From positions 1,549 through 65,548 of the forward strand of contig JAGXOL010000003.1 of NCBI GenBank assembly GCA_023659895.1: a DNA stretch of 64,000 nucleotides, given 5' to 3'. Under the pieces are notes generated by a model. It worked only from the letters and a program-made list of their open reading frames with translations. It searched no databases and was not told where the DNA came from. A program made the translations under genes and the position numbers. This document shows, piece after piece, positions 3-35,017 of this stretch. Every line of letters starts with the position of its first letter. The stretch's first letter is position 1. This DNA is from Candidatus Aenigmarchaeota archaeon LH_S7. GTDB taxonomy: Archaea; Aenigmatarchaeota; Aenigmatarchaeia; QMZS01.

Positions 3-3000
3 AATGAATTAGGAACTTATAATATAACAAAAATTTATCTGAATGATACCTCTGGAAATTTGAAAGAAATTGATTTAACAGATTTCTTTGAAATTATTGA
101 ATTAAACCTGAGTTCTTCACTCTCTAATCAATCAATAGAAATAAATAAAACACAAATTTTCTCCGCAAATATATCAGGAAATGCTTCCTCAATTTCTAAA
201 GTGGAAGCAAAAATTTCAAAACCAGATAATTCAACTGAAACTATAGACTTTAATTTTGAAAATAAAACCAATAATATTTATTTTTATACTAAAAATTACC
301 AAAATATAGACTTATCCGGAAATTATTCTGTAAATACAACAGTAATATTAAGCTCAAAAATCAATAAAACAGAGCAGGCGAACTTTAATGTATCTTATGG
401 AAACATTTTAATAAAAGCTGAAAACAGAACTCTTGTAAAGAATACCACTTACGATCTCCCAATATTTATTGTTCCTAACAAGGGTGATTTATTAAATATA
501 TCTGTAAACATATCCATAGAAAATGAAACCATTATAAACTCAACAAATAAAACAAATGATATAGGGGATATTTTATGGAAAGACAATTATCAGGGTAAGG
601 GAGTATTTTTCCCAATTAATTCAACAGCGAATGGAACTACAACGATAAATATAACAGCTTATTCTCCAAATCTGAATGAAAGCAAAAGTATAAATATTAC
701 AGTAATTCGGAAGGACGATACCCCTCCAGAAATAAACAAATTTAACTATTATAATCTTACAAACTTAAATGAAATAAACAAATTTTTAATAAATACCACA
801 GAAAATGAAACAGCAATAAAAAATGTTTCTGTTGAAGTAACATGGCCAAGTAATATTACCAAGAATATCTCTGCAAATTTGAATCCCAACAATTTGTATG
901 AACTAAATTTTAATGGAACAAATGAAAATGGAACTTACGAATTTAAAATTTATTCTTGTAATCTTGCAGATAACTGTGTGGATACAATAGCAGAAGAATT
1001 TAATGTAACAAATGAATATAAAACAGTTATACTTACCTACAATCCTTACAACAAAGGAGATAAAATAAATTTCAATGTATCTGTAAAAGATGTTAGAAAT
1101 TTACCTGTAGAAGGATTTAATCTAACTTTAGTACTTAACAAGGCTGGTGATGATGTTACCCTAGTTAACAATACTATTACAAACTTTGGAAGTTACCGGA
1201 TAGAACCAGAAGATGAGCCTGGAGCTGTCAAAGAAAAGGCTGATTCTACGAATTATACAATTTATGTAAATGTAACGAAAAACCGAAATAGTGGAGAATA
1301 TAATGAGAATTTTGTTGTCTCTGAAGAAATTCCTACAGAAATTATTTACCCGGAAACAGGGTACTATCCTCCAAATACAGGAGTAGATATGAATGTCTCT
1401 GTGGTAGATATGCACAGTGAAGTTGTAGAGGGTGCTGCTGTTACTGCTTATTGTCCAAAGTGCACTAAAGATTATGCAAGATTAACTTTTGATCCAGAAA
1501 CAGGACGTTATAAAGGCAGTTCTATATTTACAGCTCCAGATGAAGACTTTGAAATTTTTATTTATTCAAGTTCTTATTTTGGTGGAAACCTTGGTTATAC
1601 TGGAAGAATGTTTACAACAACTAAAACTACTACAGAACCTTCTGAAGGAGATGGAGGTGGAGGTGGAGGAGGTGTTCCAGGAATAACTAATTGCACCTGT
1701 AAAGAGTGGAAAGATAAAGGCTGTGGTTTATCTAACTGCTCCGCAACAGAGATGTATCAAACAAGAGTATGTAATCCTTCAGGTTGTTTAGCAGAAAAAC
1801 AATGTGTTTATAATCCTATTTGCAAACCAGAAAAAGATTTTAGAATTTCAATTGATCAAGAAATACTAGAAATTGAACAAGGAGAAACAAAAAAATCTTC
1901 CATAAAACTTGAGAATACTGGAGAAAAACTTTTAAAGTTAGGTATTTCTCTAGAGAAAGAATGCTGTGATTTAAATTATACAGAAAGATTAGAACTTAGG
2001 AAAAAAGAAATAAAAACAATGCCGATTTTAATTCATACAAAACTTTCTCAAAAGGTGGGGGATTATTTAGTAAAGTTTAAAGTAAAAAGTGAGGATATAG
2101 AAAAAGAAGAAAATTTGAAAGTAGTGGTTAAAGAAAATCCACTCATTTCTTACTTAAATTCAGTTAAAAAGAAGTTGCCTGAATTAAAAGATGAAGTTAG
2201 TGGATATAGAGAAGCAGGGGTTGATGTTACTGATTTAGAAAGAAGAACACAAGAGATAGAAACTCTTATTAAAGAATCAAATTTGAGTATAAAAACAGAC
2301 AATCTAGATAATTTAGAAAAACAAGTTGATGAAATTAAAACAAAAACTGATTATATAGATAGCAAACTAATAACTTTAAAAATAAGAAAGTTCCTACTTG
2401 AAAACAAATGGAATTTGGTTTTAGCAGCGATTATTATCTTAATATCTTCCTACTTAATAACCCAAGTTACCTACCCATATTTTAGACTCAGTAGGGAAAT
2501 AAAAAATTTAAAAGAGAAAGAGCAGGAAATTACAAACTCCAGAAAAGAAACAGAGAAAAAATATTTTTTAAGGAAGATTGATGAAAAAACATTTAGAGAT
2601 ATCATGGTTAAGACTCAGCAAAAGATTTACGAACTAAGAGGTAAGCTAAAAAGAAAAAAGAAAGCTAAAGCGAATTTCTTAAAAGAAAAATTGCTTCCAA
2701 CTGCCTTATTAAAGTGGGTTATATCTTTGCCAGTTTCTTTTTTTAGATATTCGAAAGGTTTGGTAACAAAATTAAAACATAAATTTGGAAAAATAAAACT
2801 AAAAAATAAAGTTAGAGATATAAAAAGGAAAAAACTTAAAATAAAACAAATTATAAGTGATCCTAAATTTTTTAATAGAGAAGTAACACTCAAGGGTGAA
2901 GTTTCATTTATTCAGAAGACCTCTGAAGGAGACTTTATTTACAAAATAAGAGATGAAACCGGAGATATTTATATTTTCAGTAATAAGAAACTTAAGGAGG

Positions 3001-27775: not shown

Positions 27776-29233
<1,458 letters not shown>

Positions 29234-29273
29234 AAAAAATTAAAAAGAGGTTTTATCCAAAAAATTGCTTAAG

Positions 29274-29285
29274 CTCCTATCCTGT
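29274..29285 (+). promoter_or_regulatory. 3' half of the 16S processing stem
   Basis: Reverse complement of 27736-27747. Confidence 0.6.
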
Positions 29286-29426
29286 GCGCCAAAATAATTT
29301 AGAAAATTGCTATAAAATACCTTTATAAAAGTTTTACACTTTTAGTATAAACCTTCCATAGCGGTTTTAACCACTTTTCTAGTACTCCCAATCTTTTCAT
29401 ACAATTCAATACTCCACTCAACAAAC

Positions 29427-29438
29427 TTTCCAACAATT
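29427..29438. repeat. Left copy of the 12 bp direct duplication TTTCCAACAATT flanking the nested insertion
   Basis: This 12-mer is present once in the intact element (16399-16410) and twice here (29427-29438 and 30634-30645), at the exact homology breakpoints. Confidence 0.75.
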
Positions 29439-30633
29439 TGAATTTAAATTTCAGTGGACACTGCTCAAAACAGGAGAGCCTTGAATGTGAGTAAATTATA
29501 ATTAATACTAAAAATTTCTATTGGAGAACGAAGTGTAATTGATATTGCCATGATTGTTAGTACTTCCTTCATTTTTAACCTCCTAACTTAATCCTATCCT
29601 TATTATAGAGACCATGGTTCTCAATTCTGATATTACATGTTACTTTATCCCCTCGCCACTCCTCTTTAAATTTTCCAATATAATATTCCTTAGGTTTAAG
29701 AGTAATATCCGTGTTAGCATAACTCAAGTAAACCGTTCCATCTGGTTCTATATTTGTAATTTTCATAAGAAATGGAAGATTTCGTGCATTTGGTAAGGTG
29801 TATATTGGAATTAAGCCCCCTCCACCGCCGCCACCTGGTTCTCCGAGTTCTATTATATTAAGGATTACCATTGATAATTCATTGTTTATTTCAAAATTAC
29901 AGGTTTCACATTCTAAAATTCCGGAATCGTTGTCGAAATGAAGTAGGGGCGGGAAATCTATCATTAATCGACTCCCTGAAATTTCTTGATGGAGACTGAG
30001 AAGGATATAGTCGTCTTGAGGTATTGATCTAGGAAAAACTGCATTTGTGCCATCCCATTCTACAACAACATTAACTTTATCTATATCCTGAATCTCCTCC
30101 AACATCTCACTTCCTGCCTTCATCCCCCACTCATCGCTTCCTTCCACCAACAATATCGCTTTCTCCTCATTCCAGGGATTACTCAAAATCTCCAAAATTC
30201 CTTTATTCTCTCCTGGATATTCCTCAGTTACCCTTGTCGCATCTGTCATATTATATACCTCCTCCAATATCACATTCGATTTTGACGTGCCAACTACAAT
30301 TAAATTATAAGAAGATTTAAAACTTTCAATTTTTTCCGATGATATAACTTCTGGCTTATTACCTATCAGATTTTCCAAATTAGTTGCTATCTCTTCTGCA
30401 CTCTCTTTCTCTATTTGAGAGGCGTTTTCACCAATTACGATTACCGTATTTTCCTTAAAAATCTCAGGAAAATCAGATAGCTTCAGCTCTTCTGCTGGTT
30501 GCGTTGGAGCTTGATGTTCTAAAAGAAAGTAACCAGCGATAATGCAAACCACAATTACTATTCCCAGTATTAAGATTTTCTTCTTCATAATTTATTACCT
30601 CCTCTTTAATTTAAAGTTTTTCGGCCTTTTTAA
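29439..30633. mobile_element. 1195 bp insertion carrying one antisense gene. No transposase and no obvious terminal inverted repeats.
   Basis: It is defined by loss and regain of homology to the intact MITE copy, and is flanked by the 12 bp duplication. Its gene has a strong SD, unlike neighbouring genes. Confidence 0.55.
29575..30588 (-). CDS. Membrane-anchored/secreted protein of unknown function encoded inside the rRNA spacer
   Basis: 337 aa. It has an N-terminal signal/anchor (KKKILILGIVIVVCIIAGYFLL), an internal EPGGGGGGGLIP linker and a CETC pair. AGAGGAGGT lies 8 nt upstream of the ATG (30597-30605). Confidence 0.6.
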   Translation of the reverse strand: MKKKILILGIVIVVCIIAGYFLLEHQAPTQPAEELKLSDFPEIFKENTVIVIGENASQIEKESAEEIATNLENLIGNKPEVISSEKIESFKSSYNLIVVGTSKSNVILEEVYNMTDATRVTEEYPGENKGILEILSNPWNEEKAILLVEGSDEWGMKAGSEMLEEIQDIDKVNVVVEWDGTNAVFPRSIPQDDYILLSLHQEISGSRLMIDFPPLLHFDNDSGILECETCNFEINNELSMVILNIIELGEPGGGGGGGLIPIYTLPNARNLPFLMKITNIEPDGTVYLSYANTDITLKPKEYYIGKFKEEWRGDKVTCNIRIENHGLYNKDRIKLGG

Positions 30634-30645
30634 TTTCCAACAATT
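30634..30645. repeat. Right copy of the 12 bp direct duplication TTTCCAACAATT
   Basis: See 29427-29438. Confidence 0.75.
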
Positions 30646-30777
30646 CTTCCTTTTACTGCTCTGATAAAATGATTAAAACAGGGTTTGTTAAAGAGAGTTT
30701 TGAATTTTGACAAAGAATGAATTATTGATATATTTGCTAAATATCCTTAAAAACTAAAAAGTGCAAAAGTTATAACC

Positions 30778-30785
30778 TTTATATA
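30778..30785 (+). promoter_or_regulatory. Candidate TATA box for an independent 23S transcript
   Basis: TTTATATA (archaeal TTTAWATA-like) ends about 25 nt upstream of the first base of the 23S processing stem (30810). It lies directly after the right end of the mobile element. Confidence 0.4.
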
Positions 30786-30809
30786 AATTTTTTTAAATGA
30801 GATATAGTT

Positions 30810-30893
30810 ATAGATAAAGGGGGTTCCTATTTCCTAAGGAATATGAATCTGTGGAGAGTGTTTATTGCTCAATGAAAGAGTAGGTGTAAGGAA
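30810..30893 (+). promoter_or_regulatory. 5' half of the 84 nt 23S processing stem
   Basis: ATAGATAAAGGGGGTTCCTATTTCCTAAGGAATATGAAT..GGTGTAAGGAA is the near-perfect reverse complement of 33846-33929, with two mismatches seen. Confidence 0.8.
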
Positions 30894-31359
30894 TAGAAAC
30901 ATCTATTTGCTGTTAAGCTATCTAGTGGATGGCTCGGCTTGATATCTGATGAAGGACGTGGCAAGCTGCGATAAGCCCTGGCGAGGTGCATGCTGCCTAA
31001 GAACCAGGGATTTCTTAATTGTTCCTTTTTAGGAACAGGAACGCGGAGAATTGAAACATCTTAGTACCCGCAGGAAAAGAAACCAATTGGAATTCCCTTA
31101 TTAGGGGCGACCGAAAAGGGATGAGAGCAAACCGAACACTTCCTCGTAAGAGAAAGTGAATGTGGTTTTAGGGTGTTCATACTTCCTTTAGAAATTGATT
31201 GAAATTCTCTGGAAAGAGATACCAAAGAGGGTGATAGTCCCGTAAATTGATTTTGAGAGGGAGATTTGAATTGACCCAGAGTATTATCGGTTAGGTTTCC
31301 GGTGAGAACTTGGGAGTCATTAACTTCTAACTCTAAATATAATTCAAGACCGATAGCGA

Positions 31360-31392
<33 letters not shown>

Positions 31393-31961
31393 GTAAAAGG
31401 GAGTAAAAAGAACTTAAAACTAGGTAGTATAGTATCCGTTTCGAATAACGGGGTAAGGAGTATAGGTCTAGGGCTAGACTAATCTTTTGAAGAGAGAAGT
31501 CGTAGCGAAAGCGAGTGCGAAAGTGCGTTAGTCATAGGCCTATTACCCGAAGCCGGACGATCTATTCTCGGACAGGGTGAAGTGTCTCGAAAGAGACATG
31601 GAGGCCCGCACCGTTGCTAGCGTGCTTTCTGCTCGGATGATCTGGGAATAGGGGTGAAAAGCCAATCGAGTTCGGTAATAGCTGGTTCCCTCCAAAATGA
31701 GCCGTAGCTCAGCTTGCCTTTTATAGGTTTATGTGTAAAGTTACTGATTGGGTAGTAGGGGATGAAAGTCTTCGCTACTCAGTCAAACTCTAAAGCGTAA
31801 ACCATTACTGAGGTAGAGTGGGGTTTGCCGGGGAAAGCTCGGTGACCAAAAGGGGAACAACCCTAACCAGCATTAAGGTCCTTAAATAGTGGCTAAGTAC
31901 ACTGAAGGTGTTCTTTCTCTAAAACAATAGGGAAGTAGGCTTAGAAGCAGCCATCCTTTAA

Positions 31962-32003
31962 CCCTTTCCGCTTCGCGCAAAGCGTTAACGGAAAAGGAAA
32001 GAG
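31962..32003 (+). other. 42 nt GC-containing hairpin insertion in 23S, between the conserved GCAGCCATCCTTTAA and AGAAAGCGTAATAGCTCAC
   Basis: The two flanking blocks are contiguous in E. coli and typical archaeal 23S. The insert is self-complementary (CCTTTCC..GCTT CGCGCA AAGC..GGAAAAGG). Confidence 0.6.
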
Positions 32004-33343
32004 AGAAAGCGTAATAGCTCACCTACCTAGAGGAAGTGCGCCGAAGATGGACGGGGTTAAGTCACTTACCGATATGTTGGTTGCCTTTTGGCAATGTAGG
32101 AGGGTGTCTTGGCAGGGCAGAAGTTTCTCTTTAAGGAGAAGTGGACCTGTTAAGAATGAGAATCTTACTGATAGTAACAGCAAAGTGGTGTGAGAATCAC
32201 CATCGCTAGAAGTGGGCAAGGGTTCCCTACCAATTACGATGAGGTAGGGATTAGTCCGTTCCCTAAGAGGATCCCTAACAGAAGTTTTCAAAGGGAAACA
32301 GGTTAACATTCCTGTACCACTAAGTTCTAATCTAACTGGTTAGTTCGGGATAACTTAACGCAAGCTAAGCATTGAAGTCCTTGGAGTCTCGTAATGAGGA
32401 GAAGAGGATGAAGGTGTGTGGCCTTCCTAGAGAAGGTTTAGGTGACTCCTGGATACATTGTAAGCCAGTTAGTAATATTGTTTAGTGACGGTACCCAGAA
32501 CTGACAAGCTATTTCGCACTATGAAGTAAATTAATGCAAAATGCTCAGGAAACAGGTGCCCACGTTGAGTAGGCGAAGGTGTGATAGGATAATCCTGTCT
32601 AGGGAATTCGGCAAATTAGTGGTGTATCTTTGGTAGGAACCATGCCTGTTCTCCTTCGGGAAGGACAGGTCGCAGTTACAAGGAGGGCCCGACTGTTTAA
32701 TTAAAACTTAGCTGACTGCTAGTCCGTAAGGATGTGTATAGTCGGTGAAGCCTGCCCAGTGCGGGTGTGTTAAACCCTTTTTCAAGAGGGTCAAGCCCCC
32801 GTAAACGGCGGCGGTAACCCTGACCGTCTTAAGGTAGCGTAATCCCTTGCCGATTAAACGTCGGCCTGCATGAAGGTCCAACGAGGCCCTCACTGTCCCA
32901 GACAGGAACCTAGTGAACTTTCCTTCTGGTGAAGAGGCCAGAGACTTCCAGTGGGAAGAATAGTCCCTGTGGAGCTTTACTGCAGCCTGCTGTTGTGGTA
33001 ATTTTTGGGGTGTAAAGAGTAGGTAGGAGCTTCGGCGAAAGTGTGACACTACCCTCCCTAAAAATTACTGCTTACTTTTTCGGAAGGACAGCAGTTGGTA
33101 GGCAGTTTGGGTGGGGCGCCACACCCCTAATAAGGTATCAGGGGTGCCCAAAGGTTAGCTCACCGGGGTCAGAAATCCCGGGAAGAGTGTAAACGCAAAA
33201 GCTAGCCTGATTGGATTCCTCCAAGTGCAGAATCCAAGTGCGAAAGCGTGGGTTAACGAAACGCGACCTCGCTTTAATGGCGGCTCGTAACTACAGAAAA
33301 GCTACCCCAGGGGTAATGGAGCTGTGGCCCCCGAGAGTACATA

Positions 33344-33432
33344 GAAGCCTTTTAAAAAAAAAGGCTTCAGCCAAAAAATTAAATCGCCTTCTTTTAAAGG
33401 CTTTTATAATTAATTGTTTTGGTGAGTGCAAA
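33344..33432 (+). other. AT-rich 89 nt insertion in 23S domain V at the helix 89 apical loop (about E. coli 2478/2479); intron or expansion segment
   Basis: CCCCCGAGAGTACATA and TCGACGGGG are contiguous in other 23S sequences. The insert begins with the hairpin GAAGCC-TTTTAAAAAAAAA-GGCTTC and is far more AT-rich than the surrounding rRNA. Confidence 0.65.
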
Positions 33433-33845
33433 TCGACGGGGTGAGTTGCTACTTCGTTGTTGGCTTGCCTCCTCCTGGGTGTGCAGAAGCACCCAAGGGT
33501 ACAGGGGTTTACTGTTTAAAGAGGCACGTTAGCTGAGTTAAGAACGGCGTGAGCCAGTTCGGTCTATATCTGCTGGAAGTGTTCTAGTCTGACAGGAAGA
33601 GAGCTTCAGTACGAAAGGAACAAGTTCTCGTGGCCACTGGTGTACCGGTCGTGATTGCGCTGCCGGGAAGCTAAGCCATCGCGGATAAGAGCTGAAGGCA
33701 TCTAAGCTCGAAGCCGCTCTGAAAAAGAGACTAATTCAGGTGCGGATAGAAGATCCGCTTGATAGAAGAGTGGTGTACGTACCAAGCTTCGGCGAGGTAC
33801 TCAGCCTGCTCTTACTAATTCCTAGACAGCAAATAGATTCTAAAT

Positions 33846-33943: not shown

Positions 33944-35017
33944 ATGAAGAAAACTGGAATTGCTGACTTGAGATTGTGTACTGGTCCAGTACCACACTAC
34001 AGAGAAATGGTTGAGATTGGGAAACCTTTAATTGAGACTTTAATTAATGAGTTTGGGACCAGAGAAACTGTGGAAAGATTTTCTAATCCTTCCTGGTATC
34101 AGTGCCTTGCCTGCTGCTTAGGATTTGAGTACCAATTCTCAGGGATGACAACTGTTGTATTGAAAGCTCTTAAGGATTCAATTGAAAACCAAAATTTGGG
34201 AATTGAAATCGCTGGAGGGAAAGGAAAGCTAAGTATAGGAGCACCAAAGGAATTAGAGAAATATGGTGAATCATTCAATCTTCCTGAGAAAAATCTGCAG
34301 GGAATGGTAAGCAACACAAAACTTTCCGCGAAGGTTGACAACACAGCAATTCAAGACTCTTATTCCTTGTATTTTCACACCGTCATCCTTGATGAGATAG
34401 GAAACTTCTCAGTGATTAATCAAGGAATGAACACAGGCTCGCAACTTGTGAGAAGATACCACTGGAGCAATCCTTCTGAATTAGATGATTCAAACATAGC
34501 TGGAAAAAAGGAAAATATGGTTTTGGATCTTACGAAAAGAAACTTGGAGGAAACAAGAAGAATGATTTTTGACTTGGCTAAAGAGAGCAACAAGACTGTA
34601 AATACTTATTTGAGATTGAACAAGGGAAGCTTCCAAACCAATTTACTTAATTTCGGGCAGAGAAACATAATTGAGTTACCTTATCATTTGAGATTTCCTA
34701 AGAAACTGAATGAGAAAGCTCTAGAGACAGCAAAGAATGCGAACAATTTCAAAGAATTTCTCTGCTCAAAAGGTGTTGGACCTTCTACAATACGAGGACT
34801 CGCTTTCATTGCAAACTTGGTTTACGGCTCAGAGATATCCTGGAGAGACCCTGTGAAGTTCTGCTATGCATATGGAACAAAAGCTGGAAAACCCTGGTAC
34901 GTTGAGAAAAGAGCAATGAGAAAAAGCGCTGAAATTATGAAAAACGCGGTAGAAAACGCAAAAATGGGGGACAAGAAGAGGAGAAGAGTGTTAAAGAGAT
35001 TATCAAGGTTTGTTTAA
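33944..35017 (+). CDS. Conserved archaeal protein, DUF763-like
   Basis: 357 aa. The N-terminal ADLRLCTGPVPHYREMV..FSNPSWYQCLACCLGFEYQFSGMTTVVLKALKDS resembles the DUF763 signature as remembered. Confidence 0.5.
   Translation: MKKTGIADLRLCTGPVPHYREMVEIGKPLIETLINEFGTRETVERFSNPSWYQCLACCLGFEYQFSGMTTVVLKALKDSIENQNLGIEIAGGKGKLSIGAPKELEKYGESFNLPEKNLQGMVSNTKLSAKVDNTAIQDSYSLYFHTVILDEIGNFSVINQGMNTGSQLVRRYHWSNPSELDDSNIAGKKENMVLDLTKRNLEETRRMIFDLAKESNKTVNTYLRLNKGSFQTNLLNFGQRNIIELPYHLRFPKKLNEKALETAKNANNFKEFLCSKGVGPSTIRGLAFIANLVYGSEISWRDPVKFCYAYGTKAGKPWYVEKRAMRKSAEIMKNAVENAKMGDKKRRRVLKRLSRFV

Follow-up and report, generated by a model that had tools for sequence, protein, structure and literature searches.

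A probable mini-intron with a relaxed splicing motif in the helix 89 loop of the 23S rRNA gene of an Aenigmarchaeota-like archaeon

Is an AT-rich stretch of 89 nucleotides, lodged at the tip of helix 89 (H89) in an archaeal 23S rRNA gene, removed from the precursor or kept in the ribosome? The gene in question lies in the window (the whole stretch of 64,000 nucleotides analysed), downstream of an archaeal 16S rRNA gene (27776-29235, + strand), and is matched by the Rfam model LSU_rRNA_archaea over model positions 1-2987 with 2190 bits (see Table 1). In a local Infernal alignment to this model, 91 nt stand at the H89 apex against 2 nt in the model, between ...GAGAGUACA and UCGAC..., which is a net insertion of 89 nt in the terminal loop of the helix; a preliminary description of this DNA had claimed an 89-nt insertion at the same tip, and the alignment agrees with it, setting the additional bases in the loop and not in ordinary helix 89 positions. 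With the E. coli numbering anchored on rrlH of MG1655 (L001), GGGAUAACAGGC begins at 2445 and GAGUUCAUAUCGACGG corresponds to 2470-2485, exactly where it had been put approximately before; the insertion is therefore located between U2477 and A2478. The interval given previously, 33344-33432, and that used here, 33343-33431, differ by a one-A boundary ambiguity and are equivalent, since either removal spares one of two identical bases, A33343 or A33432, and so yields the same product. The AT-richness claimed for the insert is likewise found, its G+C content being 29%, compared to 47% for the remaining 23S and 34% for the window.

The insert is real and no assembly artefact, since a diverged homologue of 88 nt occupies the same site in an independent assembly (L002, ENA ERZ23491060), the 23S of which is 93% identical to that of the window; misassembly, which had been named as a possible refutation, is thereby countered. 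As to the host, the 23S is followed by a DUF763 gene (33944-35017), and the named homologues nearest to it come from Aenigmarchaeota MAGs. The comparison with related lineages, suggested in the preliminary description, could be extended to two more genes, both of them devoid of the H89 insert: L139, whose 23S is 85% identical to that of the window and is followed by the same DUF763 gene, reads GAGAGTACATATCGACGGGG, in full agreement with the sequence predicted for the ligated exons, and L090 is 84% identical in its 23S and 89.5% in its 16S. Identities between L139 and L090 reach 95.5%, while the cross pairs between these two and the insert-bearing pair stand at 84-87%. Among the matches listed from a metagenome scan with TACCCCNGGGGTAATRG, most were chance 17-mers; 10 of the approximately 120 stretches listed fit the H89-region pattern, and nine of these are real 23S genes, the remaining one (L102) being a spurious match. 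In six further, more distant DPANN-like 23S genes among the metagenome matches listed, H89 is uninterrupted, and the presence of the insert is hence sporadic, with the window and L002 on one side and L139, L090 and these six on the other. No usable 23S was found beside the DUF763 homologues P0012, P0011, P0013, P0004, P0006, P0007, P0009, P0010 and P0003, where synteny is lost or the contig ends.

Table 1. Positions of the 23S rRNA gene, of the elements in and around its H89 insert, and of inserts at other 23S sites (window coordinates unless another gene is named; the numbers of insert sites are those of E. coli)
Feature	Position	Strand	Basis or remark
23S rRNA gene, host of the insert	30901..33838	+	Rfam RF02540
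Predicted intron, 89 nt	33343..33431	+	Infernal alignment, BHB scan, G+C
Helix 89 5' strand (exon 1), outer helix h	33324..33336	+	Rfam consensus structure in alignment
GUAC, exon-1 strand of 4-bp central helix (E. coli 2472-2475)	33337..33340	+	BHB scan
AUA, predicted 5' splice-site triplet, cut U33342/A33343	33341..33343	+	Folds and BHB scan
Intron hairpin 1 (GAAGCCUUUU-AAAAA-AAAAGGCUUC)	33344..33368	+	MFE folds
Intron hairpin 2, branched stem (GCCAAAA.../...UUUUGGU), inner hairpin 33386-33401	33370..33423	+	MFE folds
GUGC, intron strand of 4-bp central helix	33426..33429	+	BHB scan, pair probabilities
AAA, 3-nt bulge with predicted 3' splice site, cut A33431/A33432	33430..33432	+	Folds and BHB scan
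Helix 89 3' strand (exon 2), outer helix h	33433..33441	+	Rfam consensus structure in alignment
784/785 insert (H35 loop), ~50 nt	L002 ~1100-1148; L139 ~1525-1576		Absent in window (31660/31661) and L090
1615/1616 insert, 46 nt, AT-rich	32506-32551		Relaxed HBh'-like motif; absent from L002, L139 and L090
1927/1928 insert, 49 nt	L090 only, after GACCGUCUUA	minus	Fully canonical hBHBh'

The insert segment folds better than its shuffles (z = -4.0), and the two hairpins named in the preliminary description both exist (GAAGCCUUUU/AAAAGGCUUC at 33344-68, and CCAAAA../..UUUUGG within 33370-33423), with a single base between them. A search of each strand, 5' to 3', for the succession of a helix, a 4-nt central helix, a 3-nt bulge cut after its second base and a helix left a single BHB-type arrangement that combines the native H89 stem, a 4/4 central helix, a 3-nt 3' bulge and standard cuts restoring the loop. 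In this arrangement the outer helix is the H89 stem itself, made of CCCC/GGGG, a tandem G-A, and then G33335-A33336 paired with U33433-C33434, these last pairs (7-38 and 8-37) being invariant in alignment A1; the central helix joins GUAC (33337-40) to GUGC (33426-29) with pair probabilities of 0.98-0.99, and the core is present in both the MFE and the centroid folds; the triplet AAA (33430-32) sits between GUGC and the native stem (UC/GA plus CCCC/GGGG). The resemblance of the insert boundaries, GAGAGTACATA and GTGAGTGCAAA, which had also been noticed, is genuine and corresponds to the two strands of this central helix, because GUAC is self-complementary and GUGC pairs with GUAC; a target-site duplication was considered as its source and ruled out, the similarity being that of a palindromic central helix.

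Standard bulge cuts in this register would remove 33343-33431 and leave GAGAGUACAU|AUCGAC, that is, the consensus H89 loop; the resulting GAGAGUACAUAUCGAC is identical both to the Rfam consensus loop and to the intron-less L139. The predicted ligated junction reads GAGAGUACAU|AUCGACGGGGUGAG, in which GGGGUGAG are the exon-2 bases specific to the window allele, and the predicted circular intron junction reads ...GGUGAGUGCAA|AGAAGCCUUUU..., with CCCGAGAGTACATATCGACGGGGTGAGTTGC as the k-mer for a search of read sets. An hBH motif in the product-restoring register arises in 270 of 20,000 shuffled inserts (1.35%). Other splice registers, which a second loop-like copy (GUGAGUGCAAA) would allow, were rejected, their BHB candidates having 3/4 helices and non-native outer pairs.

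The 5' half is different. The triplet AUA (33341-43) does not form a closed 3-nt bulge, being placed in a three-way junction with the two intron hairpins; hairpin 2 provides an inner helix, yet hairpin 1 parts it from the 5' site, and no pairing is found between the bases after AUA and those before GUGC (Y = 0), as a strict hBHBh' motif would have it. To our knowledge, no tested substrate has this exact geometry, in which a 25-nt hairpin stands at the 5' site and 2-3 nt (GA/UGA, preceding GUGC) stand opposite. The motif, as modelled, is thus a relaxed one (hBH or bulge-helix-loop-like, in the terminology of PMC5829648) and not a strict hBHBh', the element being filed in this way because the intervening hairpin 1 places its 5' site in a three-way junction. 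The proposal that a BHB fold might be found at the junctions therefore holds for the outer helix, the 4/4 central helix and the AAA bulge, but not for the non-canonical 5' half. What is expected of a BHB-type intron in the broad sense is nevertheless present, namely product-restoring removal, a central helix of 4 bp and at least one flanked 3-nt bulge, in which the cut after A33431, the second bulge base, gives the correct exon 2.

The comparison of the insert with that of L002 reveals a markedly uneven divergence. Of the 91 aligned columns, 24 differ, and none of these lies beyond column 69, while the flanking rRNA differs by 4%; the rate of change in the interior of the insert is about six times that of the rRNA on either side, and its G+C content is genome-like. 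Identity is complete over the final 22 nt, a segment covering GUGC together with the 3' strand of hairpin 2, whereas the 5' strand and the interior of this hairpin are variable; hairpin 1 is kept with altered bases (AACCUUUU/AAAAGGUU), so that both intron hairpins persist. The central helix has the same sequence in the window and in L002 and shows no covariation between them.

Counterparts at the same site were found outside this clade. A genome scan covering one genome per species (185,579 species), in which any insertion of 40-100 nt between GGGRUAAYRG and YYUCGWUGU was accepted, yielded eight loci, seven of which are real, all in Asgard-affiliated MAGs and at the identical loop position (L011-L017: Helarchaeota, Heimdallarchaeota and Hodarchaeota MAGs, together with one labelled only "uncultured archaeon"); the eighth, L010, at the start of a contig of a Chloroflexi MAG (16-172), is a tandem duplication of a 23S segment, and hence an assembly artefact and not an insertion. 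For L013 the position was confirmed with Infernal, which aligns 71 nt to the same 2 nt of the model as in the window. In five of the seven (L011-L015) the motif in the same register is a fully canonical hBHBh', with outer GA/UC, central GCUC/GAGU, an inner helix of 4-10 bp, and the bulges ACA and A[ACU]A, of 3 nt each; L017 has the same core, with an inner helix adjoining the bulge of just 1 bp in register and a longer, shifted one in the MFE fold, and L016 (Hodarchaeota) failed the 4/4 scan, 3/4 pairs being recognisable by eye.

The window insert shares with these Asgard inserts the insertion point, the outer helix GA/UC, the use of the same four loop positions in the central helix, the places of the 3-nt bulges (AUA occupying the position of the Asgard ACA) and the type of ligated product, which in the Asgard genes is GAGAGCUCAC|AUCGAC. 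It differs from them in its body, to which the Asgard intron bodies show no similarity, in their lengths of 46-96 nt, and in the proper inner helix that most of them possess beside the 5' bulge; moreover, the exon loop is GCUC in the Asgard genes and GUAC in the window, with a matching change at the intron 3' end (GAGU versus GUGC). Over a core alignment of eight sequences, 92% of the cells pair, against 68.5% in shuffles, none of the 500 reaching the observed value, and 35-48% in slid registers; the central helix is paired in 97% of the cells, with changes on both sides, its covariation being visible solely against the Asgard introns. The latter may have originated independently of the window insert.

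The preliminary description had left open whether the insert is an intron or an expansion segment. The intron is favoured because of the observed combination of a BHB-like core in the loop-restoring register, an intron-less allele, an all-or-none presence and canonical introns at the same Asgard site, and the expansion segment is now a minority reading; the 89 nt thus probably represent a mini-intron, spliced by the archaeal endonuclease, with a relaxed 5' half and located in the H89 loop. In the proposed pathway, the helix-89 stem would remain paired in the pre-rRNA as the outer helix, and the loop bases GUAC would form the 4-bp central helix with GUGC near the intron 3' end; the AAA bulge would expose the 3' splice site, while the 5' site (AU|A) would lie directly 3' of the central helix, at the three-way junction with the two hairpins. 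The tRNA-splicing endonuclease EndA would then cut after U33342 and after A33431, the ligase RtcB would join the exons to GAGAGUACAU-AUCGAC and probably circularise the intron, and the freed loop bases could adopt the normal H89 tip beside the peptidyl-transferase and factor-binding centres. The rRNA would have to refold after ligation, because the central helix makes temporary use of bases from the exon loop. Both the cleavage and ligation steps and the identity of the enzymes responsible, EndA and RtcB, are what we infer from sequence.

Indirect signs of such a machinery are present at the ends of the same gene, where the 23S is flanked by a long stem with a textbook BHB (UAGA 30894-97 and UCUA 33839-42; motif 30894-30900 and 33839-33845, bulges AAC and AAU, cuts after 30899 and 33844). 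Since this processing stem is canonical, EndA/RtcB-type processing is to be expected in this organism, and the stem predicts a circular pre-23S, or possibly a circular mature 23S, closed at the mature ends or in their immediate vicinity. Pfam recognised neither EndA nor RtcB among the 10 ORFs around the rRNA genes. Relaxed motifs (hBH, HBh' and bulge-helix-loop, BHL) of tRNA introns require, and are known to be cleaved by, broad-specificity EndAs, of the (alpha-beta)2 and epsilon2 types, and the EndAs of DPANN archaea have an additional loop, L3, whose presence goes together with disrupted tRNA genes (PMC5829648).

A different fate of the insert has to be weighed, namely that it is never cut out and that the mature 23S carries it as a branch of two hairpins at the end of H89; the 89 nt would then perhaps be what is left of a degenerate intron. 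In the established structure of the ribosome the H89 loop is a conserved element of the core, situated between uL16, the factor-binding site and the peptidyl-transferase centre, and a retained insert would contradict the rule by which expansions are excluded from the core in the surroundings of the latter centre. Known expansion segments avoid such core sites, although large archaeal rRNA insertions at unexpected places do exist, such as that of the Halococcus 5S (cited in PMC7594248). The non-canonical 5' half of the BHB and the conservation of both hairpins in L002, with changed bases, would suit a retained segment; its presence, on the other hand, is all-or-none (0 or 88-89 nt among relatives, at a conserved apex, where an expansion segment would be expected at a variable surface site and with gradual sizes), its boundaries exactly regenerate the ancestral loop, its interior has the rapid evolution and the genome-like G+C described above, and the central helix and the 3' bulge have both kept precisely the register that splicing would require. 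Retention is, on balance, unlikely; when its variant, in which the insert is excised without ligation and the 23S is left nicked or permuted at H89, is counted along with it, the two together still make a rather doubtful reading.

This variant, which taken by itself appears very improbable, would split the 23S into two fragments that the pairing of the H89 stem keeps attached to each other; were the 23S to be closed into a circle at its terminal BHB beforehand, a linear but circularly permuted 23S ending at H89 would result. The products of EndA are normally ligated by RtcB, and the H89 stem keeps the exon ends adjacent; we know of no nick at this functional site, the H89 loop, in any organism, and the Asgard counterparts are canonical BHB introns. 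Precedents for the variant come from archaea with circular or permuted 23S, the ends of which, as in the window, carry a canonical BHB (PMC7758197, PMC12918454), from bacterial IVSs at helix tips that are cut out and not ligated (PMC11270868, introduction), and, by analogy, from the excision of H98 in Pyrococcus, which however uses a different mechanism with no BHB (PMC7758197). An origin as a self-splicing (group I or group II) intron, as a repeated mobile element, or as an assembly artefact or pseudogene is hardly tenable. Self-splicing introns of both groups have a ribozyme core and are typically at least 200 nt long, compared to the 89 nt of this element. Group I introns do occur in the LSU genes of DPANN archaea, the nearby site 2500 included (PMC6125680), but the sole Rfam family found within 33150-33650 at E <= 0.001 is the LSU rRNA. 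A repeated mobile element was rejected, no second copy of the insert being found elsewhere in the window or among some 140 further loci; the diverged homologue of L002 speaks against an artefact, and the full length of the rRNA, together with unusual bases common to its relatives, against a pseudogene.

If spliced, as we consider probable, the insert belongs to a class with known representatives; archaeal BHB introns of rRNA genes were reportedly described by Kjems and Garrett in 1991. They occur in the 23S and 16S genes of Crenarchaeota (Desulfurococcus, Staphylothermus, Pyrobaculum, Aeropyrum, Thermoproteales), and ORF-less mini-introns are found among them (PMC4496867; PMC6125680). As in these, the window has a short ORF-less insert at a conserved, functionally important rRNA site, the removal of which restores the sequence; exon loop bases and intron form a 4-bp helix between the splice sites, with refolding needed afterwards, and the occurrence is sporadic among close relatives. 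Differences lie in the host, which is a DPANN (Aenigmarchaeota-like) archaeon, and in the 5' half, which is a three-way junction and not a 3-nt bulge with an inner helix; moreover, the H89 loop (2477/2478) was not found among the reported rRNA intron sites (1915-1951, 2449-2604 and others). With the non-canonical tRNA introns of relaxed BHB (PMC5829648) the insert has in common one intact bulge, the central helix and one flanking helix, as well as the placement of the other site within a loop or junction; those introns, however, are defined in pre-tRNAs, while here the transcript is a pre-23S and the "loop" contains a 25-nt hairpin. Bacterial 23S IVSs and rRNA expansion segments resemble it as AT-rich stem-loops that replace the tip of a conserved helix, but the former consist of one long stem, cut by RNase III, at the sites H25/H45, and the latter are surface features of the ribosome whose size changes gradually; a BHB in the loop-restoring register, where the window insert has its BHB-like core, is absent from both. 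A bacterial-type IVS was also rejected on the fold, since the insert ends, AGAAGCC (5') and GAGUGCAA (3'), do not pair and two separate hairpins are formed instead.

The insert probably belongs with the archaeal rRNA introns of BHB type, taken in the relaxed sense, and its site is, provisionally, an unreported one. The searchable literature, whose coverage does not extend to older subscription papers, contains no description of an intron at H89/2477, nor of BHB rRNA introns in the 23S of Aenigmarchaeota or Asgard archaea; no H89 intron is described in the paper of Penev et al., in its preprint or in its supplements. Were the assignment correct, the H89 loop (2477/2478) would be an rRNA intron site apparently not described before, used in the distant DPANN and Asgard lineages, and at least the Aenigmarchaeota-like clade would possess several sporadic 23S mini-introns, with consequences for the design of primers and probes, for the annotation of rRNA genes and for the rRNA-based phylogeny of these uncultured lineages, where introns left in the sequence would otherwise be misread as "expansion segments"; the three-way-junction motif would also offer a natural substrate for exploring the limits of BHB recognition by the DPANN endonuclease.

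In the alignment of the four related genes (window, L002, L139 and L090), three further all-or-none inserts are seen at conserved 23S sites. That at 784/785 has in L139 a central helix of 3/4 pairs and an inner helix of 8 bp, and a BHB-type cut reproduces the intron-less allele; its distribution conflicts with the relatedness of the 23S genes, so that at least two gain or loss events have to be assumed, and on sequence comparison this is the behaviour of an intron and not of an expansion segment. The insert at 1615/1616 of the window is probably a second mini-intron, as suggested by its motif (ACUG/CAGG with 3/4 pairs, the triplets ACA and AAA, inner AGC/GCU) and by its predicted product AACUGAC|ACAGGUG, which has the length and architecture of the intron-less alleles (AACCAACACAGGUG) and of E. 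coli AACCGACACAGGUG. The insert at 1927/1928 shows outer ACC/GGU, central GUCU/GGGC, the bulges UAG and AGA and inner AGAG/CUCU, and once it is removed the site reads exactly as in the window, L002 and L139.

Some other properties of the rRNA region may be recorded. The 16S-23S spacer (29236-30900) is 1.67 kb long, compared to about 120-160 nt in L139 and L090, and contains on the opposite strand an ORF of 337 aa (29575-30588) with no Pfam match. No tRNA gene was detected in the 64 kb with ARAGORN, and neither tRNA nor 5S with Rfam at the gathering threshold, although disrupted or intron-rich tRNA genes may escape such detection. Near-universal bases of the PTC region (33310-33321, 33451-33462, 33530-33555) are altered with respect to E. 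coli and to the Rfam archaeal consensus: A2448G, C2452U, A2453G, C2499U, A2503U, C2507U, G2582A, U2586A and A2600C. For the changes at 2582, 2586 and 2600 the comparison covers L002; the other six, which flank H89, are common to L002, L139 and L090, and occur in part in other DPANN-like 23S genes (L027, L076, L085, L119, L127 and L135). Because they are shared among relatives, these changes are lineage traits and not signs of pseudogene decay.
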